Source: an uncultured Candidatus Binatia bacterium (lineage in GTDB: Bacteria > Desulfobacterota > Binatia > UBA9968 > CAXXLF01). Taken from it: DNA of 64,000 bases. A program made the position numbers and the translations under genes. The DNA is taken from assembly GCA_965218425.1 (NCBI GenBank), contig OZ244621.1:608001-672000 (forward strand). The letters run 5' to 3'. Positions within the stretch are counted from its first letter, which is position 1. The number at the start of each line of letters is the position of its first letter. Below are positions 38,569 to 62,670 of the stretch, one piece after another. The notes below the pieces were generated by a model. It had not been told where the DNA came from. It did no database searches and saw only the letters and a list, made by a program, of their open reading frames with translations.

Positions 38569-38914
38569 AGAGGAAGACGAGCCGCGGCATGATCAAGCGG
38601 CTACGGGGTTTAATCTGACCGCTATATCGGCTTCGCACGGGAGAGGTCAGAGTTTTCTACGATGTATCAGCGCCCGCTCGGGACCGTCCACGATAGACCG
38701 CCATGCGGCGCCGCGTGCCGGTACCTATCGCGGTGAACGGCGCCGGCTCGTCTCCGGCCGCCGGAAGGCCGGTTATTCACAGTTTAAAGCGGCCTAAAAG
38801 GGCCTTTAAAGGCCGGTTATCGAGCCCTGAACGCCCCGTAAAATCCGGCCGGTTTCCGGCCCATTTCCAATTATTTCCGTCCGCCTACACCGATATTTAA
38901 GCCGTGATGCCGGA

Positions 38915-39047
38915 GTCATGAGCCGTGGGTTGCGACAATTAGAAGACCGTCTTCTAAAGGACAGAGATTTACACAAGAGAACTGGTACGATACAAGCTGA
39001 AATCCGAAAGGGAACGAAACCCAGAATAGCAAAAAGGCATGCCTGCC
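38915..39047 (+). repeat. Repeat family X, copy E (apparent RAYT-transposase 3' end)
   Basis: GAGCCGTGGGTTG..CAATTAGA..ATCCGAAAGGGAA.GAAACCC.GAATAGCAAAAAGGCA, shared with four other copies. Confidence 0.8.
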
Positions 39048-39146
39048 CTCAATTATTATTGAATGATTTTAAACAGTTTGATAGATACTTACTTTTTTAG
39101 ATAATTTATTCTTGACAAGTCTCGAAATATAGACTATGCATGAAAT

Positions 39147-41744: not shown

Positions 41745-42742
41745 ACCGGGCAAACTACGGATTGGACCGAACTCTGTTAAACGAGCTGACTCAGCCGGGA
41801 TTCCGGTTGCCGCCGCTTACTAACTGGCTGATGACCGACGTGTGGACGATGGATCGGTACCGGGGAGTGGGTGAAAAGCCGGCCGATTACTTGATAGAGG
41901 GAGAACGTCTGGTCCATCACCGGGAGACGCTTCTCACCCTGGCCGGAGATTCCCTCTACGATGAGCTTGCATCACCGCCGATCATGAACCGGTCCGTCAA
42001 AGCGTTTTTAGATCAATATCCGGGAGGGTCCGTAGTCATTCTTGACGGATGCTCGATTCGGGAGCTGCCTCGACTCGTTCAATTGGCGGCATCCTCCGGC
42101 CGACCTGTCCTGGAACGAAGTTATGGCTTTGCCGCCGTCCCGAGCGAGACGGAGATGTTCATTGGTCAAAGAATGGGGCTTGGCCTTCCGGCAATTTCTC
42201 CTTCCACTCTCCCTGGCCGGCGAGAGCTGCGGGAACAGGGTATCAAAGCGATTTGGCAGAGGCAGCCGACTCAACGGCTGAGAGTCGAGGACGGTCAAGA
42301 AGCTTTATTGCTATGGGCCCGATTCCCGGACATGCGGTTCATGGATGCGGCGGCGTCCACGGCCGCATTGTTCGATTCTATCTGGGATATGCTGGAGACT
42401 GTCTGGATGCGAACCGTTCAAGTAATGCCGGCGTCACGGCCGGTATTGGTAACAAGCGATCACGGATACATATTTCTCGGCGCCGCCCTGAGCGACCCCA
42501 GGCTAAAGGGAGTCGATAGACCCCTTGAAGGTAAGCGCTACCGTGAGTTTCCCCCTCAAGAAGAGCTGCCTCAGAGAAAACCGGGCCTGTGGGTTGATCC
42601 GGGGCGGCGATTGGCAGTGGTGGCCGGTCGGGCCCACAATCGCCCGCAAGCGCCTTCGCCGAGCAACTCCGTTTACAGGCATGGGGGACTCAGCCTTATG
42701 GAAATGGTGACCCCTTGGTTGGTACTTGGTCCAAAGGAGTAA
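41741..42742 (+). CDS. Stand-alone PglZ-like alkaline-phosphatase-superfamily protein
   Basis: VILDGCS, PSET, VTSDHG, HGGLSLMEMVTPW; ATGA overlap with the ATPase. Confidence 0.85.
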   Translation: MNRANYGLDRTLLNELTQPGFRLPPLTNWLMTDVWTMDRYRGVGEKPADYLIEGERLVHHRETLLTLAGDSLYDELASPPIMNRSVKAFLDQYPGGSVVILDGCSIRELPRLVQLAASSGRPVLERSYGFAAVPSETEMFIGQRMGLGLPAISPSTLPGRRELREQGIKAIWQRQPTQRLRVEDGQEALLLWARFPDMRFMDAAASTAALFDSIWDMLETVWMRTVQVMPASRPVLVTSDHGYIFLGAALSDPRLKGVDRPLEGKRYREFPPQEELPQRKPGLWVDPGRRLAVVAGRAHNRPQAPSPSNSVYRHGGLSLMEMVTPWLVLGPKE

Positions 42743-42747
42743 GGGCT

Positions 42748-43068
42748 ATGAAGCAAAAAATCGGCACGCTTATCGAAGAGGACATTATGAGACAAGCCAA
42801 GCGGCGGGCGGCCGGGGAGGGGCGGTCTCTGAGCGACCTCATCCAGGACGCTCTCTTGCAATACCTCCATAAAGAGGCGGCGGCCCCAAAGGAACGGAAG
42901 ATGGCCTATCATCTCTTTTGCGAGCGCCCGATGAAGATACCTCAGGAAGAGCTCCAACACGTGCTGGAAGAAGATACGTGGGACTTAGGCCCGAAGCAGC
43001 TTGAGCAAAGAGACGTCCCGATCCAAGATCCGTTCGGGAAAACGAGAAGGATCACTCTGAAAGACTGA
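42748..43068 (+). CDS. Ribbon-helix-helix antitoxin-like protein
   Basis: KQKIGTLIEEDIMRQAKRRAA.EGRSLSDLIQDAL; directly upstream of a PIN gene. Confidence 0.75.
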   Translation: MKQKIGTLIEEDIMRQAKRRAAGEGRSLSDLIQDALLQYLHKEAAAPKERKMAYHLFCERPMKIPQEELQHVLEEDTWDLGPKQLEQRDVPIQDPFGKTRRITLKD

Positions 43069-43077
43069 AATGACGCT

Positions 43078-43596
43078 ATGAACCTCGACGACATCCCTAG
43101 CGGGAGCCTTTGCGTGCTCGACAGTAATATCCTGATCTACGCGGAACAAGGCGCCTCCATGCAGGCGCAGCGTCTCCTGCGCCGCATTGAAGAACGCGAC
43201 CTGAACGGAGTATTGCCGCAGCCGGTTTGGCAGGAAACCATGCACAGACTGATGGTAACCGAAGCTATCATGGTTGGGCAAATCCGTGGCCCCAATCCCG
43301 CTCGACAGCTTTCTCGGAAGCCGGATGCGGTGAAACAACTGACGCTCTACAAGGAAAAGATAAGGGCATTGATAACTCTAGGCCTTGGCTTTGAGCCGTG
43401 TCAGGAGAGCGATCTTTTAACCGAAGCGCTTGAGATCCAGGATCGGTACGGGCTGCTCACGAACGACTCCTTGATCGCGGCAATGGCGCTGCGACTGGAG
43501 GCGGACGCGTTGGCCTCCACGGACGCGGGGTTCGGAGGTATCAGGGAAATTATGGTCTATGTGCCCACGGATGTGAAGCTTCCTTCAAGATCATGA
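43078..43596 (+). CDS. PIN-domain (VapC-like) toxin
   Basis: LDSNILIY, E, LLTNDSLIAA, STDAGF. Confidence 0.9.
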   Translation: MNLDDIPSGSLCVLDSNILIYAEQGASMQAQRLLRRIEERDLNGVLPQPVWQETMHRLMVTEAIMVGQIRGPNPARQLSRKPDAVKQLTLYKEKIRALITLGLGFEPCQESDLLTEALEIQDRYGLLTNDSLIAAMALRLEADALASTDAGFGGIREIMVYVPTDVKLPSRS

Positions 43597-46500
43597 AATC
43601 AGAGTTTCAACAGACTACTAAGGAATCAAGGTCCGCAATGGCTCCGGCGGAATCCGAAGGCGACGGGACGCTGATGAAGCGTGCGATTGAGGTCGGGTTC
43701 CCTATCGTCGAGATCAACCGGCTTGCCGTTCCGGAGCGGAACTCCTTCAAACCCATTTATCAAATGCACAAGTGGTTCGCCCGTCGCGCCTCCTGCGTCT
43801 TCCGGGCCATTCTTCTGGGAACGCTTAAACCGGCGCACCAGCCGGATGGCGCCCCCACCGACCTCATGGCGGAGTTCTATAAAGACCACTCCGATGATCC
43901 CGATACTAAAGACAAAGTCATTCTTGATCCGTTCATGGGCGGCGGCACGACGGTCGTCGAGGCGCTCAGGCTTGGCTGCCGCGTCATCGGCATCGACCTG
44001 AACCCCGTTGCCTGGTTCATCGTCAAAACCGAGATCGAGCCCGTAGATCCGGATGCGTTACAGGCCGCCTTTGAGCGCCTGGGGGCGCGCCCTGTGGCAT
44101 GGAACGGCGGGTGGCCGCTCAAGGAAACGCTGCTGGGGCTATACCGGACCGAGGTTGCCGGCGGCATTGAAGCCGATGTGATCTACACCTTCTGGGTCAA
44201 GTCCGCCATCTGCACCGATGCTAACTGCCGCCGTGAGGTGCCTCTATTCAAAGACTATATTATCGCTCAAAAAGCCCCGAAGATCCGCTATCATCGGGAC
44301 GCCATCTGTCCCGCATGCAAGAAAACGTTCGATTGGGAAATCCAAGTTGCCTCCCTCATCGCCGAACCGGCACTCATGGTCAATGCACCGCGGGGAAGCG
44401 GGGGAGAGGGAAGGCCGGCGTCTCTGTGGAGCTACGCACACGAACCGCCGAAGCCCCCCAAACGCGGCAACCCATGGCAAACCGATGTGCCTTGCCCTCA
44501 CTGCCAACAATCCGTCCGCATGCAGGTGCCGAGCGCGCGGAAGGAAAGAAAATCAGTTTCCCTGACCGTCCTGCTTTGCCCTGCGTGCGAAGCCGTCTGG
44601 CAATGGCGCGGCTCATTGCCGGACGGTCCAATGGACTGCCCGGCTTGCCACCATTCCTATGATCCCCGCAAGGGTAACGTCCCCGAAAAAGGAAAATTCA
44701 AGTGTAGTTGCGGCCAGAAGGACGACATCATAGCGAGTATTCGCACGTTGCCCCAGGATCAGCGCCTGCCGGTCCGGCCATACGCGGTCCAGGCGTACCT
44801 AAAGCCTAGTGGACAGCAGGACTATGATGATGGCCAGTCAACATTTTTTGAAACTAATGAGCAGGAGCCGCCGAATCATACGGACGACGGGGTGCGCAGG
44901 GTAGAAACCGATGGCCTCTTGTTTCCTGACAACGGCAAGTTCTTCAAGCGTTTCACCGTTGCGGACACGCGGCAGCTACAACAAGTAGAAGCTCTATGGG
45001 AGGAACATAAGGAAAAGTTGCCGTACCCGAAGAGCGCAATCCCTGAAGGGTACAACACCAATCAAATGTTAAAGCATAACTACCGGAATTGGGCTGAGAT
45101 GTTTTCTCCTCGCCAGCTACTTGCCCTGAGCACGCTGCTCCAGGGGATAATGGAGGAAGAGGATGAAAAGCTAAAGGAAAAGTTACTTTGTTCCTTTTCG
45201 GGGTGTCTCGAACTAAACAACGTATTCACTCGATATATGGTCTCCCGTGAAACGGCAGGTGGCCAAACCGCCCAGGGCGTTTTTTCCCGCCATGATTTCC
45301 AACCTAAGACTACGATCACAGAAAACAACGCATTTGGCATAGTAAATATTGGGATGGGCTCCTTCACATCCAAATATTTTCTCGCGATTGATGGACTGAA
45401 ATATCACAATTCTTGCTGGGATTTCTACGATGACACTGATGCGAAAAAGAGAAAGAAGATTGTGGTAGATCAAATCAGTACACAGGAATTGCAGCTGGCC
45501 TGTCGGAGTATTCTCCAGACTGGCGATATGAGTGAGCGTGTGTCACATGTGATCACAGACCCACCCTACGTTGGAAACGTGAACTATTCCGAGCTGGCTG
45601 ACTTCTTTTATGTATGGCTACGTCTGGCTTTGAAGGACCGATATTTCCATTTTGCCCCTGAATATACTCCTAAAAACGGGGAGATAGTTGAAAACAAAAC
45701 TAGAGGAAAAACGAGAAAGGATTTCTTCGACGGGCTTATCGAAGCGTTCAAGCAAATCGGTAGCCAGATGCGTGACGAGGGAGTTTTGGTCTTTACTTTC
45801 CATCATACCGACCAGAAAGGCCTTGTTTGGCAAGGGTTGCTCGAATCTCTTTGCGAAGCTGGCTTTGAGATAGCCGCGGTCTACCCCATTCATGGAGAAT
45901 CGGAATCGTCTTTGCATCTTCAAAACAAAGCAAATGTCTCGTACGACCTGATCCACGTTTGCCGGAAACGAAGTGAGGATATCCCCGCGCGGTCATGGGC
46001 GGGTATCCGGATGGACATGCGGCGTCAGGCGCGGGAGGAATTACAGGCGATAGAGAAGGGCCGCTACGGCAATGAACCTCTGTCAGAGCCCGATGTCCGG
46101 CTTATCTGTATTGGCAAATGCCTGGAGCTCTACAGCACTCATTTCGGCAAGGTCCTTGACCACGAAGGCAAACCCCTCCCGCTTCACAAGGCCTTGCAAG
46201 ACATCTCGGCGACCGTGGACCAGTTGGTGACAAAGGATCGTCCATTGCCCTCTGAGTTGGAAGCCGTGGATGCCTTATCATACGTGTGGCTCAAGGTTCT
46301 AGCGCCGATTCGCAACGAGATCACCGTCGACGCGGTAAGCAAGGCCGCCCGCGTCATGCAGGTATCCGTAGAGGATCTCAAAGGCGCCGACCTGATTGTG
46401 CGCGGGCGTACGGGTCGCGGGCGGACCTATGAAGTGAAACAACCCGGTCAACGCCTGCCGGACTTGCTGCGGCAGTACCAGCCGGGGCAGAGAGTTCGAA

Positions 46501-46766
46501 CTACCCAGGGAGAGTTGTTCACTTCCGAAGGCGAAACGATCTTTTATGACATCAAATTGGTGGACCTACTCCATTTGGTTCTGGGGCTGGCGACCGCGGG
46601 AGAATCCGTCGTGCCTTGGCTGGATCGTTTCGGGGTATTGCGGCCCCAGCTCCGGGCCGCGCTTCGCTTTGCGCGAGACATACGATCGGACTGGAGGGAG
46701 CCGATTGATCGTGTGTTGGCGCTGATCGAAGGCGCGCCGCTTCTCCGGGCCATGGAGGACACCTGA
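43593..46766 (+). CDS. DUF1156-family adenine-specific DNA methylase with Zn-ribbon insert
   Basis: HKWFARR, DPFMGGGTT, DLNPVA, several CxxC, TDPPY...YSELADFFYVW, FTFHH. Confidence 0.92.
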   Translation: MKSEFQQTTKESRSAMAPAESEGDGTLMKRAIEVGFPIVEINRLAVPERNSFKPIYQMHKWFARRASCVFRAILLGTLKPAHQPDGAPTDLMAEFYKDHSDDPDTKDKVILDPFMGGGTTVVEALRLGCRVIGIDLNPVAWFIVKTEIEPVDPDALQAAFERLGARPVAWNGGWPLKETLLGLYRTEVAGGIEADVIYTFWVKSAICTDANCRREVPLFKDYIIAQKAPKIRYHRDAICPACKKTFDWEIQVASLIAEPALMVNAPRGSGGEGRPASLWSYAHEPPKPPKRGNPWQTDVPCPHCQQSVRMQVPSARKERKSVSLTVLLCPACEAVWQWRGSLPDGPMDCPACHHSYDPRKGNVPEKGKFKCSCGQKDDIIASIRTLPQDQRLPVRPYAVQAYLKPSGQQDYDDGQSTFFETNEQEPPNHTDDGVRRVETDGLLFPDNGKFFKRFTVADTRQLQQVEALWEEHKEKLPYPKSAIPEGYNTNQMLKHNYRNWAEMFSPRQLLALSTLLQGIMEEEDEKLKEKLLCSFSGCLELNNVFTRYMVSRETAGGQTAQGVFSRHDFQPKTTITENNAFGIVNIGMGSFTSKYFLAIDGLKYHNSCWDFYDDTDAKKRKKIVVDQISTQELQLACRSILQTGDMSERVSHVITDPPYVGNVNYSELADFFYVWLRLALKDRYFHFAPEYTPKNGEIVENKTRGKTRKDFFDGLIEAFKQIGSQMRDEGVLVFTFHHTDQKGLVWQGLLESLCEAGFEIAAVYPIHGESESSLHLQNKANVSYDLIHVCRKRSEDIPARSWAGIRMDMRRQAREELQAIEKGRYGNEPLSEPDVRLICIGKCLELYSTHFGKVLDHEGKPLPLHKALQDISATVDQLVTKDRPLPSELEAVDALSYVWLKVLAPIRNEITVDAVSKAARVMQVSVEDLKGADLIVRGRTGRGRTYEVKQPGQRLPDLLRQYQPGQRVRTTQGELFTSEGETIFYDIKLVDLLHLVLGLATAGESVVPWLDRFGVLRPQLRAALRFARDIRSDWREPIDRVLALIEGAPLLRAMEDT

Positions 46767-47197
46767 TGCCCGGGTATCGTCTGATCGAGGAGCGTATGCT
46801 GAAGCCTTCCAATCGCGACGGCATCGAGCAAAATCCTTATCGCATGGGCTTTCTTGATTACATGAGGGAGCTTCGCCAGGACCCTTTCCCGTTTCCTCCC
46901 GGTCACAAGGTTCGGGTCGAGGGGCTTGAGCACGCACTTCTTGCGGCAGGTGACAAGCTTGAAGAAGTAGAGCGTTTTATCCACGACGTCTTGGCCAGTC
47001 GAGCAAACGAGCTTTACTCTGTCGTGGGAAGTGATGTCCAGGTCATATTTCAGGATAAGCTTCAGAGGTCCGATGATTTTTGGGTCGAGGCCGGGCCCCG
47101 GCGGCATTTGAGCCTGCGCCCGATCTTCGGCACGCCCATCCGGCAAGAAGGACCAGGCGGGACGGAATTCTTTTTTGTGGGGTTTAATCTGACATGA
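46766..47197 (+). CDS. Hypothetical 143-aa component of the DUF499 operon
   Basis: Start/stop overlaps on both sides (TGATG, ATGA). Confidence 0.75.
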   Translation: MPGYRLIEERMLKPSNRDGIEQNPYRMGFLDYMRELRQDPFPFPPGHKVRVEGLEHALLAAGDKLEEVERFIHDVLASRANELYSVVGSDVQVIFQDKLQRSDDFWVEAGPRRHLSLRPIFGTPIRQEGPGGTEFFFVGFNLT

Positions 47198-49992
47198 GTG
47201 AGCAGACGGCTAGATACGAGCAGGTGCAAACGCCGATTGCGCCTAACGATAAGGTCCGAGTTCTCTCTCATCCCGAGTTGGGAATCGGCGAGGTACTGCG
47301 AGTGGCGGAGCAGGCCGGGTTCTATCAGGCGGACGTTGTTTTTGATACTCCTACCGGCCGGCGACTTGAAGCCTTCCCTATTGAACTGCTGGAGCGAACG
47401 GGTGATCTGTGGCAGAGGCTGAAGGAGGGCGCTTTCGACGACTCTACAGCCTACCGGATAAGACAGATCGCCGTAGATCTCGCCCACTCCAATTCGGGTG
47501 GGGAGCTTTCGGCCAGCCGCGTAAACCTTCTCCCTCACCAAATTCTGCTGGTCCATGACTTGGTCGCCATGGCCGAGCGGCGTCTTCTGGTTGCGGATGA
47601 GGTCGGACTGGGAAAAACCATCGAAACCGGCATGCTCCTTCGCGAGTTGAATGCCAGGGGCGAAGTCGACAGGGTTCTCATTGTGACTCCTGCGGGTTTG
47701 GTTAAAAACTGGCAAAACGAACTCCGCGAGTGTTTCCGTCTTCATTGCTCTATCCTCAGTCACGATTTCTATGATTACGGAACGGCTTCCTGGGAAAGCC
47801 ACCCCTGGGTTATTGCCTCTATTGATACCCTTAAGCAGCCGCGTAGAATGCAGCGGCTCCTCGGAGGGCCAAGGTGGGATGTGATCATTTTCGATGAGGC
47901 CCATCATTTGTCTCGAACGCGCACCGGAAAAAAGACCGTCACGACCCAGAACTACAAACTCGCCGAAACTCTGCGAAGCCACACGCGGGATCTGCTCTTT
48001 CTGTCAGCCACTCCCCATCAGGGCAATCCGTTCCAGTTCTGGTCATTGATCCAACTGCTCAACGACCAGCTCTTTAGCAATCCGGATGAGCTGAGTGAGC
48101 ACCGGGGCCTGCTGGCGCGCGTTATGATTCGACGGACCAAGCGGGAGGTGACTGACGCCGGAGGCAATCCGATCTTTCGGCGCCGCCAAGTTAATACGGA
48201 ACGCTTCCCTTTGGCCCCGCGCGAGCGTGAGTTCTACGACAGCCTAAGTGAATATTTGCGGGAAGGCTACGACGTCGCCGGTATAAATCAGTCGAGGACG
48301 ACTCGGCAGCAGCGGGCCATTGGTTTTGTCATGGCCACCTTCCAAAAGATCATGTCTTCGAGCCCGCGTGCGATTCGCCAAGCGCTCAGGCGCCGCCTCC
48401 TTGTCCTGCTGGTCCGAAAGCAGCTTGCGCTGGAAGCCAAACGCCGGTCTGGCGCGTCCAACAGTGATGCGATCCTCAAGATTCAAGACGAGATGCTCCA
48501 GGTGGCCCGGGCTATTCTCGGCGAACAGACCGCCGATAACTTGGACGGCGAAGCTTATGTTTTGCGTGTTCGACGCCGACTGCTAAAGCGGATGGACGAA
48601 AACTACGAGACGACTTCGTGGTCGCTCGACGGCGACGAAGAAGCGGAGGAAGGAGTATACGCTGACGCCGATATCCCCCAGGAGATCGAGAAGGTTCGGG
48701 AGTTGATCCAATTGGTTCCCAAAGGGACTGATCGTCGTTTCGATACGCTGGTGCAAGCAGTCAGCGAACTCTCCGAGAACAATTCTGACGAACGGTTCGT
48801 GATTTTTACTCAGTATCGCGACACGCTCGAATTCCTTTCTGAGGAATTGGGTAAAATCTATGGCTCGAATCGCATGGCACGAATTATCGGAGGCCCATTG
48901 GAAGACAAGGTCGCGGCTATGGAGTCATTTTGGGACCCGGATGGAGCCCGTTTTCTCATTAGCACCTCAGCCGGCGGCGAGGGGATAAATCTTCAAATCG
49001 GGCATATTGTTTTTAATTACGACCTTCCGTGGAATCCGATGGCCGTCGAGCAGCGTATCGGCCGAATTCACCGCTATGGACAGGAGGAGACGGTGCAGGT
49101 CTACAACTTGCTGGCACAGGACACCGTGGAAGAACATATCTACGGCCTGTTGGACCAAAAGCTTTTAGAGATTGCACGCTCCATCGGTAATACCGATTCA
49201 CAGGGGCGACCCCTCGAAGACTTTCGGAGCGATGTTCTGGGTTATCTTGGAAGCCGTCCGGACTATCAGGACTTGTACAAGCGTGCTCTGGTCAACCGCG
49301 ACTACAGGCACACGGATGCTGAACTTCAACGCATGATTCAAGAAGCGCTGCGCGCTCGCGAAGCGCTGGACCGATTGGCCCAGGATTTAGGGCATTTTAA
49401 TCTCGAGCACTATCGAACGTTGGAGGGACGGTATTCTCTGGGGGAGCTTGGCGAGTGGGTCCGGGCGGCCATCCTAAACCTCGGCGGCGGCGCCGTTCCA
49501 ACGGGCGAATTCTGGACCTTAATTTGTCCCGACTCGTTGCAGCGTAACTACCGTCTGCTTCCAAGATACGAGAGAGTTTGTTTTGACCGGGACATCGCGC
49601 TCCGCAATCGCGGCTGCGAACTCGGAGGGATCGGACACCCGTTAGTGGACGCTCTCCTCGCGGAAACTCGATCCCCAACCTTGGCGGGTGAAGTCGGGGA
49701 CCTAGGGACGGGAGCTCTGTGTGCTCGTTATCTCGTGCGCCGCCGTGATGAACGAGGTCTCATCCAGAGTCGTGTGATTACCTTGACGTACCAACCCACC
49801 ACCGGGGAGGTCCAAACGCTCCCGCACTTCCCAACAGATGAGGGGTCTAGCTCTGACAATAATGGAGATGGGGATCTTGCCCAGGCTCGCTCAGCAATTG
49901 AAAGCGCATTGGAAACCGAAATCAATAGCTGGCTCCCCAGTCGGCAGTCCCGGATTGGTTTGAATATCTCCCTGGTCGGTCTGCACTGGTGA
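47194..49992 (+). CDS. SNF2/RapA-like helicase
   Basis: LPHQ, ADEVGLGKT, DEAH, SATP, IFTQYRDT, GGEGINLQ, PWNP..EQRIGRIHR. Confidence 0.95.
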   Translation: MSEQTARYEQVQTPIAPNDKVRVLSHPELGIGEVLRVAEQAGFYQADVVFDTPTGRRLEAFPIELLERTGDLWQRLKEGAFDDSTAYRIRQIAVDLAHSNSGGELSASRVNLLPHQILLVHDLVAMAERRLLVADEVGLGKTIETGMLLRELNARGEVDRVLIVTPAGLVKNWQNELRECFRLHCSILSHDFYDYGTASWESHPWVIASIDTLKQPRRMQRLLGGPRWDVIIFDEAHHLSRTRTGKKTVTTQNYKLAETLRSHTRDLLFLSATPHQGNPFQFWSLIQLLNDQLFSNPDELSEHRGLLARVMIRRTKREVTDAGGNPIFRRRQVNTERFPLAPREREFYDSLSEYLREGYDVAGINQSRTTRQQRAIGFVMATFQKIMSSSPRAIRQALRRRLLVLLVRKQLALEAKRRSGASNSDAILKIQDEMLQVARAILGEQTADNLDGEAYVLRVRRRLLKRMDENYETTSWSLDGDEEAEEGVYADADIPQEIEKVRELIQLVPKGTDRRFDTLVQAVSELSENNSDERFVIFTQYRDTLEFLSEELGKIYGSNRMARIIGGPLEDKVAAMESFWDPDGARFLISTSAGGEGINLQIGHIVFNYDLPWNPMAVEQRIGRIHRYGQEETVQVYNLLAQDTVEEHIYGLLDQKLLEIARSIGNTDSQGRPLEDFRSDVLGYLGSRPDYQDLYKRALVNRDYRHTDAELQRMIQEALRAREALDRLAQDLGHFNLEHYRTLEGRYSLGELGEWVRAAILNLGGGAVPTGEFWTLICPDSLQRNYRLLPRYERVCFDRDIALRNRGCELGGIGHPLVDALLAETRSPTLAGEVGDLGTGALCARYLVRRRDERGLIQSRVITLTYQPTTGEVQTLPHFPTDEGSSSDNNGDGDLAQARSAIESALETEINSWLPSRQSRIGLNISLVGLHW

Positions 49993-50043: not shown

Positions 50044-50236
50044 GTCAGGTAACATGAAAAAGGGGTCAAGCTCCAGTAGGACGGTGGTTGTAACGGCCAT
50101 CAAACCTGAAAGGAGAAAACCCCATGCTTTGGTGGACCGCGTCCAAGTGGACAGGATATTCCAAGAGCGAATTGGTACAATACAGGCTGGAATCCGAAAG
50201 GGAAGGAAACCCGGAACAGCAAAAAGGCAAGTATGG
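50044..50236 (+). mobile_element. Repeat family X, copy A: IS110 left end + ATG fused to the RAYT-like 3' end
   Basis: GTCAGGTAACATGAAAAAGGGGTCAAGCTCCAG...GAAAGGAGAAAACCCCATGCTTT followed by the X core. Confidence 0.75.
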
Positions 50237-50333
50237 CTCCAATTATGAAAGACCCAAGAAAATATTGCATCCACGCAACGGGGCTCGGAGACTTTTTGCC
50301 TTGCTTTACAATCCAGCAGAATAGGCGACCAGG

Positions 50334-52169
50334 ATGAAGTTCCAAACTAGCGACAACCTAATCTCCTTACTTGTTGGCCAAAACCTCTACTCAAGCGGGG
50401 ATGCCGCTCTCCGCGAGTTGCTTCAGAACTCTGAAGACGCGTGCAATCTTATGGCACTAACTGATCCGACCTTTGAGCCCCAAATCAATATTCGATACTC
50501 GGCCGGTAAGAATTATTTTGAAATCGACGACAATGGTTTGGGAATGGATGAAGAAATATTTAAAGAAAGTTTTGTGACTATAGGAGCCTCCAAAACCAAT
50601 TCAACCAAACTAAAAGCGTTGCTAGAACGGGCAGGTGGAACTGTACGTCCGATCGGCCAGTACGGCATAGGTATCTTAAGTTGCTTTGGGGTGTCAGAGA
50701 CCGTTCAAATCCTCACGCTAGCTGAAGGAGCCGACCCTCTATCGTATAACATTCCAGACTTACGTGGCGACTTCAGTACGCTAGATGAATACAGGAATCA
50801 GCGAGGGACAACAGTACGACTGTATTTGAAGCCAAATGGACCGATGTCGGCGCGCGATATTCCCGGAGCTGTATCCCGCTACGTTCGACATGCAACTAAC
50901 ATCTGGATAGAAGACCTAGACAACCGTCAGCGAACGCCTGTTTCGGAACAATGGTTGGTAGATTCAACGGATGAACCAACCGTATTGACAACTGATACGA
51001 TTCTGAAGGGTCGCCTCGAGCTAAGCGCTGGCTGGGAAAATATAAACCAAGGATTAGACGACCAGATCACTCTTTGCAACGGTGGCTTCTTAGTCACGGA
51101 GAATGCTCGCGACATGTTGCCCGATTACTCTGTTGGATTTCGTGGAGAAATTGACATCCGTCCTGGCAGCATGACGATACTATTGAATCGCGAAGGATTT
51201 CAAAAAGATCAATTCTGGCAACAATTTTGCGTATCAGTGAAGCTACACTATCAGTGTCTTGTCGAGCGAAAACTTGACTCTTGGCTGAACGACCCATCAG
51301 CGACTGATTTTTCCTTAGACAAGAAGCGTGCAATTCAACGAATTATATTGTTGATACTGTTTTCTCCATTGGGAGAAGTTGTGGGCGAAGCGAATATGGA
51401 AAAGGCGCGCCTGCTATTACCACTAGCTTTACACAACATTGAAAAGGACTACCGTAGTGTTAAACAAGTGATTGCTGCCGCGCAGCATAAGCCGCCTCTA
51501 TACGTTTATCGAACCGATGATGATCAAGTCCTGAACAAATCGCTCAATGACGGGAGTCAAAATATTCAGCTCTCAGCTCCAATTCGAAGTTTGGATTTGC
51601 GCACCACGTTGCTACGCTTGAACGGCTTTGTTGTTGTTGAGGCGGAAAATCACAGCTATTCAGTTTTTCATAATGGGAGAAATAGAAATGTAGATATCAA
51701 CGACATTCAAGCGTTAGAGCTGTTTGCTTCCGCTCGCGGACTTCTAATTGGTTTGGTTAGGGATGCCCCGGTTGACCATACGCGAATTGGTACATCATTT
51801 GATGCACAGGAGATAACCAGAATATTTGAATTAACGTCAGATCTCAAATTCCAGTCAGTTGACGCTATAGCAGACGCCGTAATTGCGGACTTCAACGGAT
51901 ATATTCTAAACTCAAGGAACGAGGAAATTCGACGTATTTTGTCAGTCATCCCGGACGCAATTGGTAATCCTATTCGAAAGAATTTAATCAGCGCATACCT
52001 TTCGCTTTCTGTGTACGACGTAGCGCGGTCACGACAAACACTTTACGAGTTGATTGTTGATGAAGAATTTCAATTGAAGGCTCGCCAAGAGACGGGCAAA
52101 TATTTTCGACTGTATTTAGCGGATAAGATAAGGAATCTGTTGGAAGCCGAAGGAGGGAAAAATGTCTAA
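50334..52169 (+). CDS. HSP90/HtpG-like GHKL ATPase with an unrecognised C-terminal region
   Basis: LYS..AALRELLQNSEDA, DNGLGM, IGQYGIGILSCF, GTTVRL, middle-domain LNREG. Confidence 0.85.
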   Translation: MKFQTSDNLISLLVGQNLYSSGDAALRELLQNSEDACNLMALTDPTFEPQINIRYSAGKNYFEIDDNGLGMDEEIFKESFVTIGASKTNSTKLKALLERAGGTVRPIGQYGIGILSCFGVSETVQILTLAEGADPLSYNIPDLRGDFSTLDEYRNQRGTTVRLYLKPNGPMSARDIPGAVSRYVRHATNIWIEDLDNRQRTPVSEQWLVDSTDEPTVLTTDTILKGRLELSAGWENINQGLDDQITLCNGGFLVTENARDMLPDYSVGFRGEIDIRPGSMTILLNREGFQKDQFWQQFCVSVKLHYQCLVERKLDSWLNDPSATDFSLDKKRAIQRIILLILFSPLGEVVGEANMEKARLLLPLALHNIEKDYRSVKQVIAAAQHKPPLYVYRTDDDQVLNKSLNDGSQNIQLSAPIRSLDLRTTLLRLNGFVVVEAENHSYSVFHNGRNRNVDINDIQALELFASARGLLIGLVRDAPVDHTRIGTSFDAQEITRIFELTSDLKFQSVDAIADAVIADFNGYILNSRNEEIRRILSVIPDAIGNPIRKNLISAYLSLSVYDVARSRQTLYELIVDEEFQLKARQETGKYFRLYLADKIRNLLEAEGGKNV

Positions 52170-53610
52170 TGTTGGTTTTTTGTTGGGTGCAGGAGCATCC
52201 TACCCATTCGGCATTCCGATGATGCGGGAGTTCTATAGCAATTTCGTCAACTACGTCCGGAACAAGAGATCGCATTGCCATGGACTGATGATTAAGCTTG
52301 AGAGTGAGGCAGCGGACTACATGGATTTGGAGACCTTGATTTCGCAACTAGATAAAATTCGTGGCATACGCGATGGTCTCAGCGCTTTGGGGAGGAAGGA
52401 CGATGGGGCATTGGCCGCTGAGCTAGATGTTGCTGAAGAGTTGCGAGGCTATTTGGACGCTTACTTAATTGAGGTATGTGAACAATTCGACAGAAACAAG
52501 GTCAAGAATACGCTAACGCCTTTTGTCCAATATTGCTATGACAGCAATACTCACATTTTCTCAACAAACTACGATAGACTCATAGAGACAGCTGCCGACG
52601 GATTGGGTGTAGCTTGTAGTGACGGATTTGAACAGCAATCGGGTCGTCCAGAAGCGGCGTGGATTGGCGATGTTGAAGCGTCACAGGGGATTAGACTTGT
52701 AAAACTGCATGGTTCAGTTAATTGGTATAAGGAAGAGGGCTCGGGAACTATATTTCGGCTGGAAAGAGGGTACTCTTTACCGTCACATGAGTATCGATTG
52801 ACTCATGGAGAAAGAGCGCTTCGTCCACTGATGATTATTCCAACTTTGGAGAAGACGGTGTTGCAGATTCCCTATGCAACTTTGCTTACGACATTTAGCG
52901 ATGCGCTGTTGTCTATGGATTTATTGATTGTGATCGGTAACAGCATGAGAGACGAACACATAAGGAATACCATTGCGGCGAGATTGAGAGGTCTTTATGT
53001 CGTGCTTGTCAATCCCCAAGCCGATGGTCAGGTAAGCTTGTTCGGCGACGGGGAAAAGGTACAGGCGATGCCGATTGGGATGGAGGATTTCATTAGAATC
53101 GGTATTCCAAAGTTGCGACAAATGTCTAGTGAGGGATTGCGTTCAAGTGTGTGGGGCAATAGCGGTGACGACGTGAGAGCATTTGTGCAGGAGGTGCTGA
53201 GTGGCGTGGATAGCGTGGACGGGATGAGTATAGAGGATCGCCAGGTACTGGAACGGCTTAGGAGTGGGTCCTCATCAGAGCGGATTGAAGTTATGAACGG
53301 TATTGGTGGGGAGGCTCACAAGGAAGTAATATTGCAGTTGCGGAATATTGCAAAGGAGGGAAGCACGGAATCAGAACAGATTGGGGCCGTGGATGCTTTA
53401 GCGGAGGTGGGCGATATGGGGTCGATTGACTTGTTGTTGGAAGTGGTGGATGAGAGTCCAACACTGGCTGTAAAGGCTGAGGCAATATTGGCGCTAAAGC
53501 AGATTCTAAGGCAAAATGGAGTGGACGACTCTCCCTATGTGCAAAGATTTGCTTCGCGGAACCAATTGGAACGGTCATTAATGTCAGCAACGGTTAAAGT
53601 TCTGCACTGA
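52162..53610 (+). CDS. SIR2-like NADase domain + C-terminal HEAT-like repeats
   Basis: FLLGAGAS, STNYD, KLHGS, VIGNSMRDEHI; C-terminal AVDALAEVG..SIDLLL..VKAEAILAL. Confidence 0.88.
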   Translation: MSNVGFLLGAGASYPFGIPMMREFYSNFVNYVRNKRSHCHGLMIKLESEAADYMDLETLISQLDKIRGIRDGLSALGRKDDGALAAELDVAEELRGYLDAYLIEVCEQFDRNKVKNTLTPFVQYCYDSNTHIFSTNYDRLIETAADGLGVACSDGFEQQSGRPEAAWIGDVEASQGIRLVKLHGSVNWYKEEGSGTIFRLERGYSLPSHEYRLTHGERALRPLMIIPTLEKTVLQIPYATLLTTFSDALLSMDLLIVIGNSMRDEHIRNTIAARLRGLYVVLVNPQADGQVSLFGDGEKVQAMPIGMEDFIRIGIPKLRQMSSEGLRSSVWGNSGDDVRAFVQEVLSGVDSVDGMSIEDRQVLERLRSGSSSERIEVMNGIGGEAHKEVILQLRNIAKEGSTESEQIGAVDALAEVGDMGSIDLLLEVVDESPTLAVKAEAILALKQILRQNGVDDSPYVQRFASRNQLERSLMSATVKVLH

Positions 53611-53934
53611 CCGTTGGAAATGCCGCCCGCCGTGTTGGGGGTGGTAGAAGGGTTAGGACAAAGGGGTCAAACCTTGTCGGGTTGTTTCCCTAACATCGGT
53701 TAAATAGCGCAATAGATCGAACAGAATTATTATGCGCCGTGTTTGTTTCCTCAAACCGCCACGGCTTGCTGCAAGGCCATGGAACGGCGGTCGCAAAGCG
53801 AATGGCCCCGTTCGTTGCCGTAGCCATAACCGCTCTGAGTTTGGCCGTGCATGATAAATCGATGGCCCGATGTTCTGCATTGTCGCCATCAAGTAATCCT
53901 GAATCTACACCCGCCGACGACCGCCCCACCGCGC

Positions 53935-54269
53935 TCGTTTCAGTCCGTATCGACTCCCTGCATGCATGACGCTTTTCTGTTTCCGCGTTATGCCAAGGGC
54001 AATACAGTCTTTGGATGTGCTGGCGCAGGGTCTGTAGCGAGGCTGAGCTTGGCAGACTGCGACTTCCTGACCTCTGCCACACCACGGCTAGTCATGCGAT
54101 CATGTCGGGAGAGAACCTGACCCTGGTCGGCACGCTGCTCGGGCACCTGCGGCATCGAACCACGGCGGACTACGCGCACCTCGCCGATGGGCACCTTATC
54201 GAAGCGGCGGAGCGCATCGGCGCGATCATTACGGAAGCGATGGTGTGTGCCAACAACAACCGACTCTGA
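53935..54269 (+). pseudogene. Tyrosine recombinase C-terminal remnant
   Basis: LRLPDLCHT (degenerate HDLRH), LLGH, TTADYAHL; upstream FLFPRYA is in another frame. Confidence 0.8.
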
Positions 54270-54873: not shown

Positions 54874-54876
54874 TGT

Positions 54877-54928
54877 GTGGGGTCAGACCTTGACATTTGA
54901 CATGATTCATCTCGCCTTCTCAAAAGTT
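54877..54928 (+). repeat. Repeat family Y, copy 1 (GGGGTCAGACCTTGACATTTGACATGATTCATCTCGCCTTCTCAAAAGTT)
   Basis: Near-identical ~50 bp also at ~61015 and ~62243. Confidence 0.9.
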
Positions 54929-55059
54929 GCGAAATGGCCCGTAAACCGCCCATGCAAAGCCCCTGAAAGGGCCGTGCAACGACCGCGCTCGATGCCGCCC
55001 ATGCCCGGGCAGCTTGCCGAGCCTTGCATCGCCGTAGACCGCCTGCGCCTCCGTAGATT

Positions 55060-55143
55060 GCCCTCGCCCCTGCCTTGGGCATAGCGCGGAAACAGAAATG
55101 TATTCCCGCTTCGCTCACCGGTCGATGCATCGATGTGCGCCAT
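55060..55143 (-). pseudogene. Second short tyrosine-recombinase fragment
   Basis: FLFPRYAQG matches FLFPRYAKG at ~53970 in the opposite orientation. Confidence 0.5.
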
Positions 55144-57504: not shown

Positions 57505-58641
57505 GTGGCCCGTATTCCTTACATTCCGAGTAACCCATCCTGTCATCAAATAGAAGTATTGAATGCCACCCTACAGCGTATTCCAAAAGATGACCCCATC
57601 GTTCTCTCGCTTGCCCGGAAAACCGGTGCAAAATTTTTCTCTGAGAGTTCAATAGCTCAGCTAATTGCTCATCTCTCCCGGCGTTCCGGAAAGCTTGTGA
57701 TTCGTGATACACACAATAGCTGGTTGCCAGCTCATTATTATCGATTCACATCAAAAATTGATGGCGTAGCTGCCTTAGTATATTCGAACCTCATTAGCAC
57801 AGGACGCTTAGAGAACGTAAAGAAACTTGCTGCACCTGACTCACTATTTACAGCTCTGAAATCTCGTCTTTTGGTGTCTGGATGTCTTGAGGATGCAGGT
57901 CCGACTCGCACATTCACTGCAATTGATCCTGATTACCCAACACCTGCTGAACTGGGCAGGCCTCAAGTCCGTAAAAGTGATTTTCACAACATAGTGCGAA
58001 GTACGCTAAGTCAATACGAAAATCGCTTAAAAGGGAAATCCTACGAGAGGCGCCGGGCAGAAGATCGACTTATCAGCTTTGTCTATGAAACCTTCCAAAA
58101 CACGATTGAGCACGGACGCTTCACCAAAAATAATGATTTAATCGATGGCATTCGCTATTTGCGTCTGCATGTTTACGTTGATAATAGTATTTCAGATTTG
58201 TTACGTCGAGCAGTTGGGTTTCCAGAGCTTCAACAGTTCATAGAACGAACACAACGGCAACGGAGCACCGTAAGATTTGTTGAATTAGCCGTCGCTGATG
58301 CTGGGCAAGGAATTACATCTCATTACCTAAATTCGCGATCCCCAACAGCGCCGGCTCCGGATGATCGAGCACAGGTTCTTCAAGAACTGATTGATGGAAG
58401 GCTTTCAAGCAAAAGGTCGATGTCGGGTGTTGGACTGGGTTTACCCAACGCAATGTCAGCGCTCAGGGAACTCAAGGCCTTTTTTAGCCTCCGTACTGAG
58501 GAATTTTGGCTATATCGTGATTACAGTGACCAAGACAGCGCCGCGAATGTTAGGCCGCCCCTTCATCCCGTTAGTAAAATTAAATCAATAGCACCACTCG
58601 CTGGAACCCAGTTCAACGTATTGATTGATTTCCCGAGGTAA
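57505..58641 (+). CDS. GHKL/histidine-kinase-like ATPase with no recognisable HisKA or TM segments
   Basis: N-box YETFQNTIEHG, G1 VADAGQGI, G2 GVGLGL, G3 GTQF. Confidence 0.8.
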   Translation: MARIPYIPSNPSCHQIEVLNATLQRIPKDDPIVLSLARKTGAKFFSESSIAQLIAHLSRRSGKLVIRDTHNSWLPAHYYRFTSKIDGVAALVYSNLISTGRLENVKKLAAPDSLFTALKSRLLVSGCLEDAGPTRTFTAIDPDYPTPAELGRPQVRKSDFHNIVRSTLSQYENRLKGKSYERRRAEDRLISFVYETFQNTIEHGRFTKNNDLIDGIRYLRLHVYVDNSISDLLRRAVGFPELQQFIERTQRQRSTVRFVELAVADAGQGITSHYLNSRSPTAPAPDDRAQVLQELIDGRLSSKRSMSGVGLGLPNAMSALRELKAFFSLRTEEFWLYRDYSDQDSAANVRPPLHPVSKIKSIAPLAGTQFNVLIDFPR

Positions 58642-58646
58642 GGAGG

Positions 58647-60938
58647 GTGGCCGTATTGCTCCATGTCCTCCCTTTTAAATTCGTTGATGGTAACGTGGTC
58701 CGAATTGGCATTTTGCTGGATATCCCGGAAAATGTAGACCTCACCACAATTGAAACCGAGTTGCACACGCAGCATCGGCCTCATTTCCTTGCGGCAGACC
58801 TAATCCTGCTCCGCTTTCCCCCGTGGAAAATGCGGCAACCGGAGCCGCTAGCAGTCGAGAGGCAAGGTGTTTCTAGAATTGCTGATCGATTTCCCAATGC
58901 CCAGGTGCGAATTTTATCATCGCACAAATACCAACACCTGATCGGAGACAATTTATCAGCAATCTATACTGGGAAATTCGACTTTGAAAACAACAAAGGA
59001 TCGTTCTTAAATGAATTACGAGCACAAGAACTTCAATATTTAATTGAACGGTCAGACGCAATTCTTAGTGCCGATTCAAAATATACATTTCGTCTTCCAT
59101 CTGGAGTATTCTCCTCTCACTTTCTTCGAGTCGGCAACATCCAAACCAACAGTCACAATCTTGATATATTTTTTTTCTGGATGCTTCCTTATCTGGTTGA
59201 TGTTGGAGGTATTCTGGTAGATACGTGGTCGATTGGTTCGATCGCGCTAAACTGCAGTCGGCTCACCGATAGATATGACCCCAACAATAAGAGTCTCATG
59301 AGAGTCGAGATGCGGGACAGTTATTTAGACGGTAGAGCCGAAACCCGATCTGAGCTAATCGAGCTGATAAAACGAGTATCGGACGATTTCAATTCTCCAT
59401 TCCTTTCCGTATTTAGTGCTATGATGACTAGCCGTTCCTTGAAGAACTTTTGGTCGGCTCTCGATATAGAAAACTGTCCTTCCGAACTGATTCGACTTTT
59501 AGTGTTATACCGGATGGGAGATTCCGAGATCAATCTAGATGGAAAAGATGTTCCGATATTGTGTAACTTCAAAACATCGCAATCGAGCGACGTTTCCAAC
59601 GAGAACCACGCTCAGAAGGCTGTTATCGAGATTGATCGCGGTACATATTTTCCGGTATTTATTAAGGAAAAGGAAGTTCGCCTTACCACAGACATTGCTT
59701 CTAAGAATCAAGAATTTTTTAGAAACTACGGATCATCGAATGGAATACGTATTCACGCTGATAGTATGGTAGATAGACAATTTTATCGGCATCACGGAAT
59801 TTACATTGATATTCAGAAATTGCTCCGGGAGGATTGCTTTCAGAGGCGACTGCGCGCAATTCTTACGAAGTTTCATCGATCACCCAAAATGGTGATTGTA
59901 CCGCCGCATGATAGTGGTAAAGCTCTAGCGAAGGCGGTAGCAGATCATTTTCAGCAAGAGAATGGATACAGACCGCGTATCGTCATTCATCTCGATCTAG
60001 GTTTCCCTCCTGGTGATGGTGTCGAGAACCATGACCGACAGAAAATGGCGGGGATTCATAAAGAATTAAAATCTTACGCAAATGAGGACACAATAACGGT
60101 GCTTGACGACGTTCTAACAACCGGATCTCGACTATTGTCATATCAGAAACGACTCCGAGATATAGAGTACGTTGGGCAAATTCAATATCTCGTAGGCGTT
60201 CAGAGAATGCCGTCGGCGCGGGCTTGGGCCGATCTAGCTTCTACGTTGCGTCAGAATAACCTTGGTCAGAAACACACTGCCGAATTCGTAGAATCTGTCG
60301 TATTGCCGAACTGGGATCACGACAGTTGTCCCTTATGTGTAGAGGGAAGGCTTCTGAGTGAGCTCAAAAAGGATGAATCAGTGAAAGTTTCTGATTGGAG
60401 CCTCAAACGACTGCAATTGTTGCAAAGGTCGACAAATGATGGTCTAACCAAAGATGTATTTTTTCAACCCCCGAACACACCCTCACTACGACTTTCTATA
60501 AATTCTTTCTTCGGTGACGCAGATGCGCCCCAGTCAGTGGTGTTAAGCTCTGTCGCTGCTGCAATACAAGAAATGAGAGAGCACGAAGACCCAATGAAAC
60601 GATTGGAATCGCGGGGCTTTCCTGTACGGACGGTGTTTGCGTTTGAAGACATATTCAGCAGGTATACGGACGGCATTCTTCGTGCGTCTATCCTGCGCAG
60701 CTTGACCTCAGAGGAACTTCAGCCGAGTGCTCACGGAAAAAGGACCTTGCTAATCGAGCGGGCAAAGATGTTGTTTAACACAAAGGAAGAAGACGAGTGG
60801 AATATCCAACCGGAAGTAGCGTTGGCTATCGGACTAAGAAAAGTTCCTATCGAATCTGCTGATGAAGGCACCATACAACGATTCAAAGAACTCGGTCTCA
60901 ACGATTTGGTCCCGATTGTAGAAGCAGGAAAATCGTAA
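58647..60938 (+). CDS. Large protein with tandem type-I PRTase-like domains
   Basis: FRLPSGVFSSHFLRVGN (OPRTase-like hood) with a degenerate PRPP loop; second domain has intact VLDDVLTTGS. Confidence 0.75.
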   Translation: MAVLLHVLPFKFVDGNVVRIGILLDIPENVDLTTIETELHTQHRPHFLAADLILLRFPPWKMRQPEPLAVERQGVSRIADRFPNAQVRILSSHKYQHLIGDNLSAIYTGKFDFENNKGSFLNELRAQELQYLIERSDAILSADSKYTFRLPSGVFSSHFLRVGNIQTNSHNLDIFFFWMLPYLVDVGGILVDTWSIGSIALNCSRLTDRYDPNNKSLMRVEMRDSYLDGRAETRSELIELIKRVSDDFNSPFLSVFSAMMTSRSLKNFWSALDIENCPSELIRLLVLYRMGDSEINLDGKDVPILCNFKTSQSSDVSNENHAQKAVIEIDRGTYFPVFIKEKEVRLTTDIASKNQEFFRNYGSSNGIRIHADSMVDRQFYRHHGIYIDIQKLLREDCFQRRLRAILTKFHRSPKMVIVPPHDSGKALAKAVADHFQQENGYRPRIVIHLDLGFPPGDGVENHDRQKMAGIHKELKSYANEDTITVLDDVLTTGSRLLSYQKRLRDIEYVGQIQYLVGVQRMPSARAWADLASTLRQNNLGQKHTAEFVESVVLPNWDHDSCPLCVEGRLLSELKKDESVKVSDWSLKRLQLLQRSTNDGLTKDVFFQPPNTPSLRLSINSFFGDADAPQSVVLSSVAAAIQEMREHEDPMKRLESRGFPVRTVFAFEDIFSRYTDGILRASILRSLTSEELQPSAHGKRTLLIERAKMLFNTKEEDEWNIQPEVALAIGLRKVPIESADEGTIQRFKELGLNDLVPIVEAGKS

Positions 60939-61014
60939 TATTGCTTAACCTGCTGGCAGGATCTGTTATCGCTAGACGGTGGAAATCCGCGCCCGCTTCC
61001 CGGCCGCACGTTGT

Positions 61015-61444
61015 GGGGGTCAGACCTTGACATTTGACATGATTCATCTCGCCTTCTCAAAAGTTATTGAGGGAGCACTAAAGCTCTCCCGCCACCGTCG
61101 CCCCCCGGGTTGCACTGTCCCGACACCACGGGGCGGCGGCTGCTGCAATATGCGTCAAGACGCCGTCGCATGACGTGGAGCGGCACGGCCATGTCGTCTT
61201 TTGAAACCGCTGTCAGGCTTGCCCCTTTTCTATTCCGGGTTTCCTTCCCTTTCGGATTCCAGCTTGTTCGTGCCAATTCTATTGTGGAATGTCCTGTCCA
61301 TTTGGACCCGGTGCTTTCCTGTCAATGGCATTTACCTGGGCGTGTCTTTTGTGAAAGCATGGGGTCTTCTCCTTTCAGGTTTGTTGGCTGCCATAACCAC
61401 TATCCTACTGGAGCTTGACCCCTTTTTCATGTTACCTGACCCCC
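61015..61444. repeat. ~430-bp direct repeat, copy 1 (Y end + GC-rich spacer + reverse-strand X/IS110 copy B)
   Basis: Colinear and highly similar to 62243-62670. Confidence 0.9.
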
Positions 61445-62108: not shown

Positions 62109-62241
62109 GTCATGCCTGCCTTTTTGCTATTTTGGGTTTCCTTCCCTTTCGGATTCCAACTTGTATTGCACCAGTTCTCTCTTGGAACGTCCTGTCCATT
62201 TAGAGGCGGTGCTCTAATTGGCCCAACCCACTGCTCGGACT
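62109..62241 (-). repeat. Repeat family X, copy D
   Basis: Matches copy E including the 5' extension GAGC.GTGGGTTG...CAATTAGA. Confidence 0.8.
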
Positions 62242-62242
62242 A

Positions 62243-62670
62243 TGGGGTCAGACTTTGACATTTGACATGATTCATCTCGCCTTCTCAAAAGTTATTGAGG
62301 GAGCACTAAAACTCTCCCGCCACGGTCGCCCCCCAGGTTGCACTGTCCCGACACCACGGGGCGGCGGCTGCCGCAATATGCGTCAAGACGCCGTCGCATG
62401 ACGTGGAGCGGCTCGGCCATGTCGTTCTTTGAAACCGCCGTCAGGCTTGCCCCTTTTCTATTCCGGGTTCCCTTCCCTTTCGGATTCCCGCTTGTATTGT
62501 GCCAATTCTCTTTTGGAACGTCCTGTCCATTTCCCGTCGATTGAATTTACCTGAGCGTATCGTTTGTGATAGTCTATCCCGACATAAAGCATGGGGTCTT
62601 GTCCTTTCAGGTTTGATGGCCGTTACAACCACCATCCTGCTGGAGCTTGACCCCTTTTTCATGTTACCCG
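62243..62670. repeat. ~430-bp direct repeat, copy 2 (contains X/IS110 copy C)
   Basis: Colinear with 61015-61444. Confidence 0.9.
62458..62592 (-). pseudogene. IS110-family transposase N-terminal remnant
   Basis: Translates as MLYVGIDYHKRYAQVNSIDGK..., the IS110 DEDD-domain start. Confidence 0.8.

Follow-up and report, generated by a model that had tools for sequence, protein, structure and literature searches.

A divergent Hsp90-like ATPase and a SIR2-HEAT protein form a conserved gene pair, a candidate two-gene defence system

The window analysed here is a stretch of 64,000 nucleotides of contig OZ244621.1 (assembly GCA_965218425.1), from an uncultured Candidatus Binatia bacterium. By the reading of its open reading frames (ORFs), it carries on the + strand a gene for a divergent Hsp90-like ATPase (50334–52169, 611 aa), followed by a gene for a protein with a SIR2 domain and a HEAT-repeat tail, SIR2-HEAT (52162–53610, 482 aa). 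We found that these genes form a conserved two-gene unit, a real recombination of two known defence modules that is apparently uncharacterised. A role in defence, in general terms, is in our judgement probable.

The evidence for the unit comes from both of its genes. Scanning 185,579 GTDB genomes with a family-specific SIR2 motif gave 10 loci, all of them family members, with the ATPase gene directly upstream in 10/10 and on the same contig in nine; co-location of the homologues elsewhere, which the initial annotation of this DNA had set as a test beforehand, was thus found. This number is a lower bound, because the motif scan missed a further carrier, G662. At the tenth locus (L033) the ATPase gene is found on a different contig of that genome, at its end, where an element that has inverted ends and an 8-bp duplication interrupts it close to the C terminus; the last ATPase codons immediately precede the SIR2 start. 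Starting from the ATPase, the two full-length matches among those listed (L001 and L044) each have SIR2-HEAT directly downstream (2/2), while the fragment L002 ends at a contig edge, SIR2-HEAT not being visible there. A metagenome scan with the ATPase alignment, using generic N-terminal patterns, contained at least 3 family members among the 17 loci listed.

Homologues of the two proteins also match in contig size and descent. Thirteen of 30 ATPase homologues share the exact size of the longest contig with one of 109 SIR2-HEAT homologues, against a mean of 0.16 in a jittered control, and two clusters have five contig sizes in common. Pairwise identities of the two proteins are strongly correlated (Spearman 0.95, 0/5000 permutations) over 21 pairs, of which 8 were read from DNA and 13 inferred from equal contig size, with kin that are not independent; the trees are nearly congruent, and the proteins co-diverge down to approximately 25% identity. 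This demonstrates joint inheritance and is not proof of contact. In every intact locus examined, the chaperone-like gene comes first and translation is coupled. No third gene recurs across the neighbourhoods examined, and, as the 12 other loci have no recurrent neighbour family, a conserved third component was rejected. Five of these 12 (L029, L030, L033, L034 and L044) are broken by frameshifts, which may be assembly errors, or by insertion sequences (IS). In a Vicinamibacterales genome (L034:1512-9470), genes for four different IS transposases lie within or beside the pair.

In the window the two ORFs overlap by 8 nt at the stop/start junction, ATGTCTAA, as the initial annotation had read them, and a GGAGGG motif lies 5′ of the SIR2-HEAT start at 52152–52157. 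The two genes were also correctly described as AT-richer than the backbone, with GC contents of 0.45 (ATPase) and 0.479 (SIR2-HEAT) compared to 0.54 for the genome and 0.55–0.57 for three island genes upstream.

The GHKL/HSP90 motifs noted earlier in the first gene are all present (E28/N32, D66-G68-G70, G111/G113 and G158-T159), and HATPase_c_3 is the only Pfam family above its cut-off. We take E28 to be the catalytic Glu and N32 the Mg-binding Asn, following established knowledge of the GHKL family. These two residues and the G-boxes do not vary in the 40–41 rows covering them, nor does R286 in 50/50 rows, a putative middle-domain catalytic Arg whose HtpG counterpart is presumably the residue numbered R336. 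The C-terminal half had been described as unmatched to HtpG, which holds for the sequence, where the match is poor, but not for the predicted structure. The AlphaFold2 (AF2) model, built from a 50-sequence alignment with a predicted local distance difference test score (pLDDT) of 85.6, matches full-length Hsp90, TRAP1, GRP94 and HtpG over residues 4–581 (Foldseek, VIA-align), and its residues 5–575 align to HtpG 9–626 with Z 24.9 and a root-mean-square deviation (r.m.s.d.) of 7.0 over 495 residues. Because the model matches full-length Hsp90/HtpG, the C-terminal half is most likely a diverged middle plus C-terminal domain, completing a predicted N-M-C Hsp90 fold; a new fold for this half was ruled out by the same match. 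Conservation of the C-terminal domain in the family alignment is 0.51, compared to 0.60 for the N domain. The conserved helices beyond residue 540, which the TIR fusion P0207 described below lacks, might serve as a surface for docking or dimerisation. The acidic C-terminal tail was rejected as an MEEVD-like docking motif, being variable and overlapping the ribosome site of the next gene. ESM Atlas returned unnamed HATPase_c_3 clusters and a weak SIR2_2 lead.

With HtpG, Hsp90 and TRAP1 the ATPase shares, according to the model, the full three-domain fold, the catalytic Glu and Arg and the G-boxes, but it differs from them in its low structural identity (15–20%), the lack of a PF00183 match, its separate clade and its one fixed gene partner. 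Against the curated HtpG/Hsp90 models NF003555 and NF010683 it scores 76/371 and 84/455 bits, far below the cut-offs. A tree was calculated from the top matches to the query and 5 HtpG rows, on which the root was assumed, other bacterial Hsp90 subgroups being left out; the HtpG rows form their own branch (100/100) and the ATPase family its own clade (100/99). By sequence, then, the ATPase is not an HtpG. The host genome, a single contig with 97% completeness, contains no canonical HtpG (PF00183), and the SIR2-linked ATPase is the sole Hsp90-like protein found in it. Nevertheless, the ATPase is no simple HtpG replacement, a reading that we ruled out because 5/10 other carrier genomes examined, several of them incomplete, also have canonical HtpG.

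The best ATPase matches outside the family carry N-terminal extensions. Scanning the 22 nearest non-family relatives showed 6 with TIR, 10 with HD-CE, 3 with calcineurin-like and 1 with EAD11 domains, and 2 without an extra domain. The family clade lies somewhere among such effector-fused proteins in the tree. These Hsp90-like conflict proteins, the nearest by sequence, share the ATPase–middle-domain lineage with the ATPase described here, apart from HtpG. In our ATPase, however, nothing is fused, the ATPase domain starting at residue 1 and the effector being the separate SIR2-HEAT gene, and the family has a conserved Hsp90-type C-terminal domain and a clade of its own. The TIR–Hsp90-like fusions are P0188, P0189, P0191, P0192, P0197 and P0207; P0207 aligns over 501 columns, stops near residue 548 and is without the middle-domain Arg, and no PADLOC model matched the ATPase part in the three fusions scanned.

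In its available part, a preprint on Tiamat (bioRxiv 10.64898/2026.09.30.754977) notes, with reference to Nicastro et al. 2023, an existing proposal that Hsp90-like proteins fused to HD or calcineurin-like effectors act in defence, and mentions fast-evolving sensor tails for the fused proteins. The earlier statement that no characterised system is known to pair SIR2 with a dedicated HSP90-like partner stands, in that we found no named system for the pair, but a part in defence had already been proposed for Hsp90-like modules carrying fused effectors. According to the same part of the preprint, Tiamat serves in anti-phage defence and, like the ATPase described here, is a GHL ATPase with a catalytic Glu and a transducer Arg, but is one large protein of the sacsin clade with DUF3684 and a C-terminal nuclease. 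Neither DUF3684 nor a nuclease was found in the ATPase, all 611 aa of which are accounted for by the predicted Hsp90 fold.

In the second protein, the SIR2 motifs GAGAS, TNYD and KLHGS are intact and the end is HEAT-like, both as first annotated: SIR2_2 is above its Pfam cut-off over residues 131–275, and HEAT_2 at its cut-off over residues 362–446, with additional alphaRep matches. Residues T135-N136, D138 and K181-S185 are invariant in 77/77 rows. The model (pLDDT 90.4) resolves a SIR2 domain (1–325) and a HEAT solenoid (355–480), and the former is structurally nearest to the Sir2 chains of Sir2-HerA (Z 21–23, approximately 280–300 aligned residues), with 8w9l as the best match (Z 23.2, r.m.s.d. 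3.4, 290 aligned), compared to Z ≤18 for deacetylase sirtuins (17–18 for CobB and Sir2Af) and 15.6 for ThsA. By its predicted fold the domain would be of the anti-phage NADase type. Approximately 110 full-length homologues make up a distinct family, with a sharp fall in score to other SIR2 proteins, and no fused or longer form was seen among the 7997 candidates scored, which is weak evidence. C106 is also invariant in 77/77 rows, the consensus has a His-Cys motif upstream (residues 39–40), and together these could possibly form a metal or redox site.

Like the pair, Sir2-HerA (Nezha; PDB 8w9l, 8wld, 8su9, 8j4u) consists of two genes, encoding a SIR2 protein with an Asn/His dyad and an ATPase, but in our case the partner is an Hsp90-like GHL ATPase and not a HerA motor, and the SIR2 protein bears a HEAT tail; no model match to HerA was found among the scanned neighbours of the pair. 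The accessible part of one study of Sir2-HerA (PMC11514289) describes the Asn/His dyad in the S. aureus Sir2, and a Sir2 that is autoinhibited until its ATPase partner binds and activates it. DSR2, Avs5 and ThsA, as far as excerpts of their descriptions go, combine SIR2 at the N terminus with a regulatory or sensing domain at the C terminus, as SIR2-HEAT does, and DSR2 also ends in an alpha-solenoid, whereas SIR2-HEAT is short (482 aa), has a constant Hsp90-like partner and contains no detected SLOG or STAND domain. Avs5/SIR2-STAND has a STAND NTPase between SIR2 and the repeats, a place taken in SIR2-HEAT by approximately 30 residues (between 1–325 and 355–480). In type I Thoeris, ThsA carries SLOG and has an adjacent TIR gene, whereas the C-terminal domain here is HEAT; a ThsB-like gene lies near the pair in 1/12 other loci (L028).

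Named carriers belong to at least five phyla (Acidobacteriota, Actinomycetota, Planctomycetota, Pseudomonadota and Dadabacteria). Members of this rare family were found here in metagenome-derived records only, which might explain why screens based mainly on cultured strains left it unnamed. Prevalence was 0/400 in the phylum, 1/400 in the class and, by DNA, 0/30 in relatives, and a phylum sample centred on G793 added 0/400 further genomes. A single-protein locus search in GTDB gave no match, plasmids had no match, and viral contigs held no family member, the 8 loci matched there being other SIR2 proteins. Strong PADLOC neighbours (E 1e-25 or better) occur in 5/11 other loci, with this window and L029, a contig of 4 kb, excluded, versus 1/11 control windows (one-sided p=0.074); the input was 45 selected neighbour ORFs, not all neighbours, and the controls were 11 evenly spaced 16-kb windows of one genome, that of the host, with 141 ORFs. 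The enrichment is no more than suggestive.

Our leading account, to which we give slightly less than an even chance, is that the pair is a stand-alone abortive NAD+-depletion module in which the clamp activates SIR2. SIR2-HEAT would be a latent NAD+ glycohydrolase, and the Hsp90-like protein a dimeric, ATP-driven clamp, translated jointly with it and bound to it, probably by contacts between the HEAT tail and the family-specific C-terminal ATPase helices. The middle-domain lumen of the clamp might capture an invader protein, upon which ATP-driven closure would rearrange or cluster the bound SIR2 domains, whose activation would deplete NAD+ and arrest the infected cell. The working mode would be that of Sir2-HerA with an Hsp90 clamp in the place of HerA, or that of a TIR-Hsp90 fusion with its effector in trans. 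We infer binding, NADase activity, a trigger and the direction of control from what is seen, namely linkage, co-divergence, folds and intact active-site residues. This account is favoured by the linkage, the co-divergence, the Sir2-HerA-like fold, the effector-fused relatives, the patchy rarity, the low GC content and the island setting.

Several observations weigh against this account. Co-divergence of neighbouring, co-travelling genes is no proof of contact, and the truncated ATPase fragment L003 has an unrelated gene next downstream. Strong defence neighbours are present in only 5/11 other loci versus 1/11 controls (p=0.074), and several copies lie among housekeeping genes (L027, L031). The C-terminal domain of the ATPase is about as conserved as the rest of it (0.51 versus 0.60), unlike the fast-evolving tails of fused Hsp90-like proteins, and the strong cross-phylum conservation of both genes would fit a fixed chaperone–client pair no less than a sensor exposed to pressure from phages.

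In such a pair the Hsp90 paralogue would be a private chaperone that keeps its sole client, SIR2-HEAT, inactive or primed. Either a phage protein, a burst of unfolded protein or a shut-off of host translation would titrate the chaperone and free the NADase, or the HEAT tail would be the sensor and the chaperone would merely mature the effector; taken together, we regard these versions as rather unlikely. They are consistent with the predicted complete N-M-C fold with both catalytic residues kept, with a C-terminal domain that is conserved and not variable, with the chaperone gene standing first, in translational coupling, at every intact locus examined, and with the 5/12 other loci broken by frameshifts or IS (some possibly assembly errors), which is compatible with a costly cargo. 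Precedents exist in toxin-antitoxin-chaperone defence systems and in Hsp90-dependent nucleotide-binding leucine-rich repeat receptors (NLRs). However, in L033 and L048 an IS removes the last helix of the ATPase and leaves the SIR2 frame intact, which would be costly for a strict antitoxin unless the IS also stops SIR2 expression, and nearest relatives with fused effectors fit a switch better than a folding aid. Moreover, according to the accessible part of PMC11514289, the ATPase partner of the structurally nearest Sir2 activates that protein and does not restrain it. A bolder proposal, which we consider doubtful, is that a true three-domain Hsp90 serves as the private chaperone of a single immune effector, its client-binding cycle being the infection sensor, and that SIR2-HEAT is an NLR-like effector-plus-repeat protein without an NTPase of its own, the switch being given in trans by the Hsp90 clamp. 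If this private-chaperone sensor existed, prokaryotes would have a two-protein equivalent of Hsp90-gated immune receptors, which would also serve as a minimal model for the activation of Hsp90 clients.

It is improbable, in our estimate, that the pair has no defence role and that a sirtuin with a dedicated chaperone ADP-ribosylates or deacylates a protein target in stress or proteostasis. The 6/11 other loci without a strong defence neighbour, a host without HtpG and the lack of copies found on plasmids or viral contigs would agree with this, but the domain is of the SIR2_2 type and much closer in structure to anti-phage Sir2 (Z 21–23) than to CobB or Sir2Af (17–18), 5/10 other carriers also have canonical HtpG, and the cross-phylum spread is very sparse. 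Least credible, and largely refuted by the varied neighbourhoods, is that the pair belongs as an accessory to the DUF499-PglZ-methylase-SNF2 (Hma/BREX-like) operon upstream, or is a juxtaposition by chance in the island: it shares the strand of the helicase and lies 341 nt downstream of it, and G662 also has BREX genes close to the pair, but a dispersed repeat separates pair and operon, their GC contents differ, no neighbour family recurs across 12 other loci and the adjacency of the two genes is conserved independently.

Neither PADLOC 2.0 nor NCBIfam 20 nor Pfam contains a model that names the pair, in agreement with its initial placement outside named systems. Our literature search found no description of it, although Nicastro et al. 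2023 (10.1093/nar/gkad879), outside that search, may list the architecture; the main text of PMC13069673 has no mention of HATPase or HSP90, and one of its supplements no match for three Pfam names. The HATPase of Ambrosia is a sensor kinase. If the pair defends against phage, it would represent a new class of ATPase partner for SIR2 NADase immunity and, for Hsp90-like modules, which in bacterial defence have apparently been predictions for fusion proteins until now, a compact case open to testing. How Hsp90 closure switches a client on or off could also be followed with unusual clarity in a divergent Hsp90 that has a single fixed partner, NAD+ loss being the direct readout.

Table 1 Features of the gene pair and its surroundings (window coordinates, or locus for defence neighbours elsewhere).
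Feature	Position	Strand	Evidence
Divergent, predicted full-length Hsp90-like GHL ATPase, 611 aa; N ~1–200, middle ~201–485, C-terminal ~486–605	50334..52169	+	Pfam, AF2, Foldseek/VIA-align
N-box ExxxN (E28, N32)	50415..50429	+	40/40 aligned family members covering the site
R286 in LNREGF, putative middle-domain catalytic Arg	51189..51191	+	Aligns with Arg of HtpG LNVSRE (weak second-domain match); invariant 50/50
Shine-Dalgarno-like GGAGGG and 8-nt stop/start overlap (putative translational coupling)	52152..52169	+	Sequence; stop/start overlaps recur at homologous junctions
SIR2 domain (~1–325), Sir2-HerA structural type; GAGAS, DLE, TNYD, KLHGS, GNSxRDxH	52162..53136	+	Pfam SIR2_2; motifs invariant 77/77; structure
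N136 (TNYD)	52567-52569	+	SIR2 motif
H183 (KLHGS)	52708-52710	+	SIR2 motif
C-terminal HEAT-repeat solenoid (~355–480) and stop codon	53224..53610	+	Pfam HEAT_2; alphaRep matches by profile and structure
Dispersed intergenic repeat, left cassette edge	50044..50240	.	~40–48 overlapping BLAST matches in genome; context, not shown as part of the system
Second dispersed intergenic repeat, right cassette edge	53660..53960	.	~10–14 overlapping genome matches; context
Defence neighbour: type I restriction-modification	L026		
Defence neighbour: ThsB-like TIR with integrase and conjugation gene	L028		
Defence neighbour: Hhe/PDC-S37	L030		
Defence neighbour: DruE-like helicase	L032		
Defence neighbour: BREX	L044		

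In this window the pair is located within a defence island. Upstream lies a DUF499-PglZ-PIN-methylase-SNF2 operon with Hma/BREX-like matches, its SNF2 helicase gene being on the same strand as the ATPase gene, and downstream are a GmrSD_C protein, a DUF5655 protein and a PDC-M65-like gene pair. Dispersed intergenic repeats lie on both sides of the cassette, whose DNA had no match in 30 relatives, one same-genus genome among them. Promoter and terminator scans of the locus stayed at chance level, and no Rfam family or tRNA was found there.

The upstream operon (39147–49992) encodes a DUF499-like ATPase, a short PglZ-like protein, an antitoxin-PIN pair, a DUF1156 methylase, a 143-aa protein and the SNF2 helicase; its PglZ-like gene stands alone, and all matches of the operon are below NCBIfam cut-offs. 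Dispersed intergenic repeats of 200–450 bp, of several families, occur at 38800–39050, 50044–50240, 53660–53960, 54876–55090, 61010–61440 and 62110–62670. Many of them begin with GGGGTC, and they delimit gene blocks of the island and cluster in a few other regions of the genome; they are possibly MITE-like (miniature inverted-repeat transposable element) or REP-like (repetitive extragenic palindromic) spacers of a cassette-like island. The gene pair at 57505–60938, HATPase-like and PRTase-like, matches the PADLOC candidate PDC-M65A/B. A short remnant at 54015–54269, with the motif HxxRHT...HLRHR...T.DY and a few copies in the genome, presumably resembles the C-terminal end of a tyrosine recombinase.

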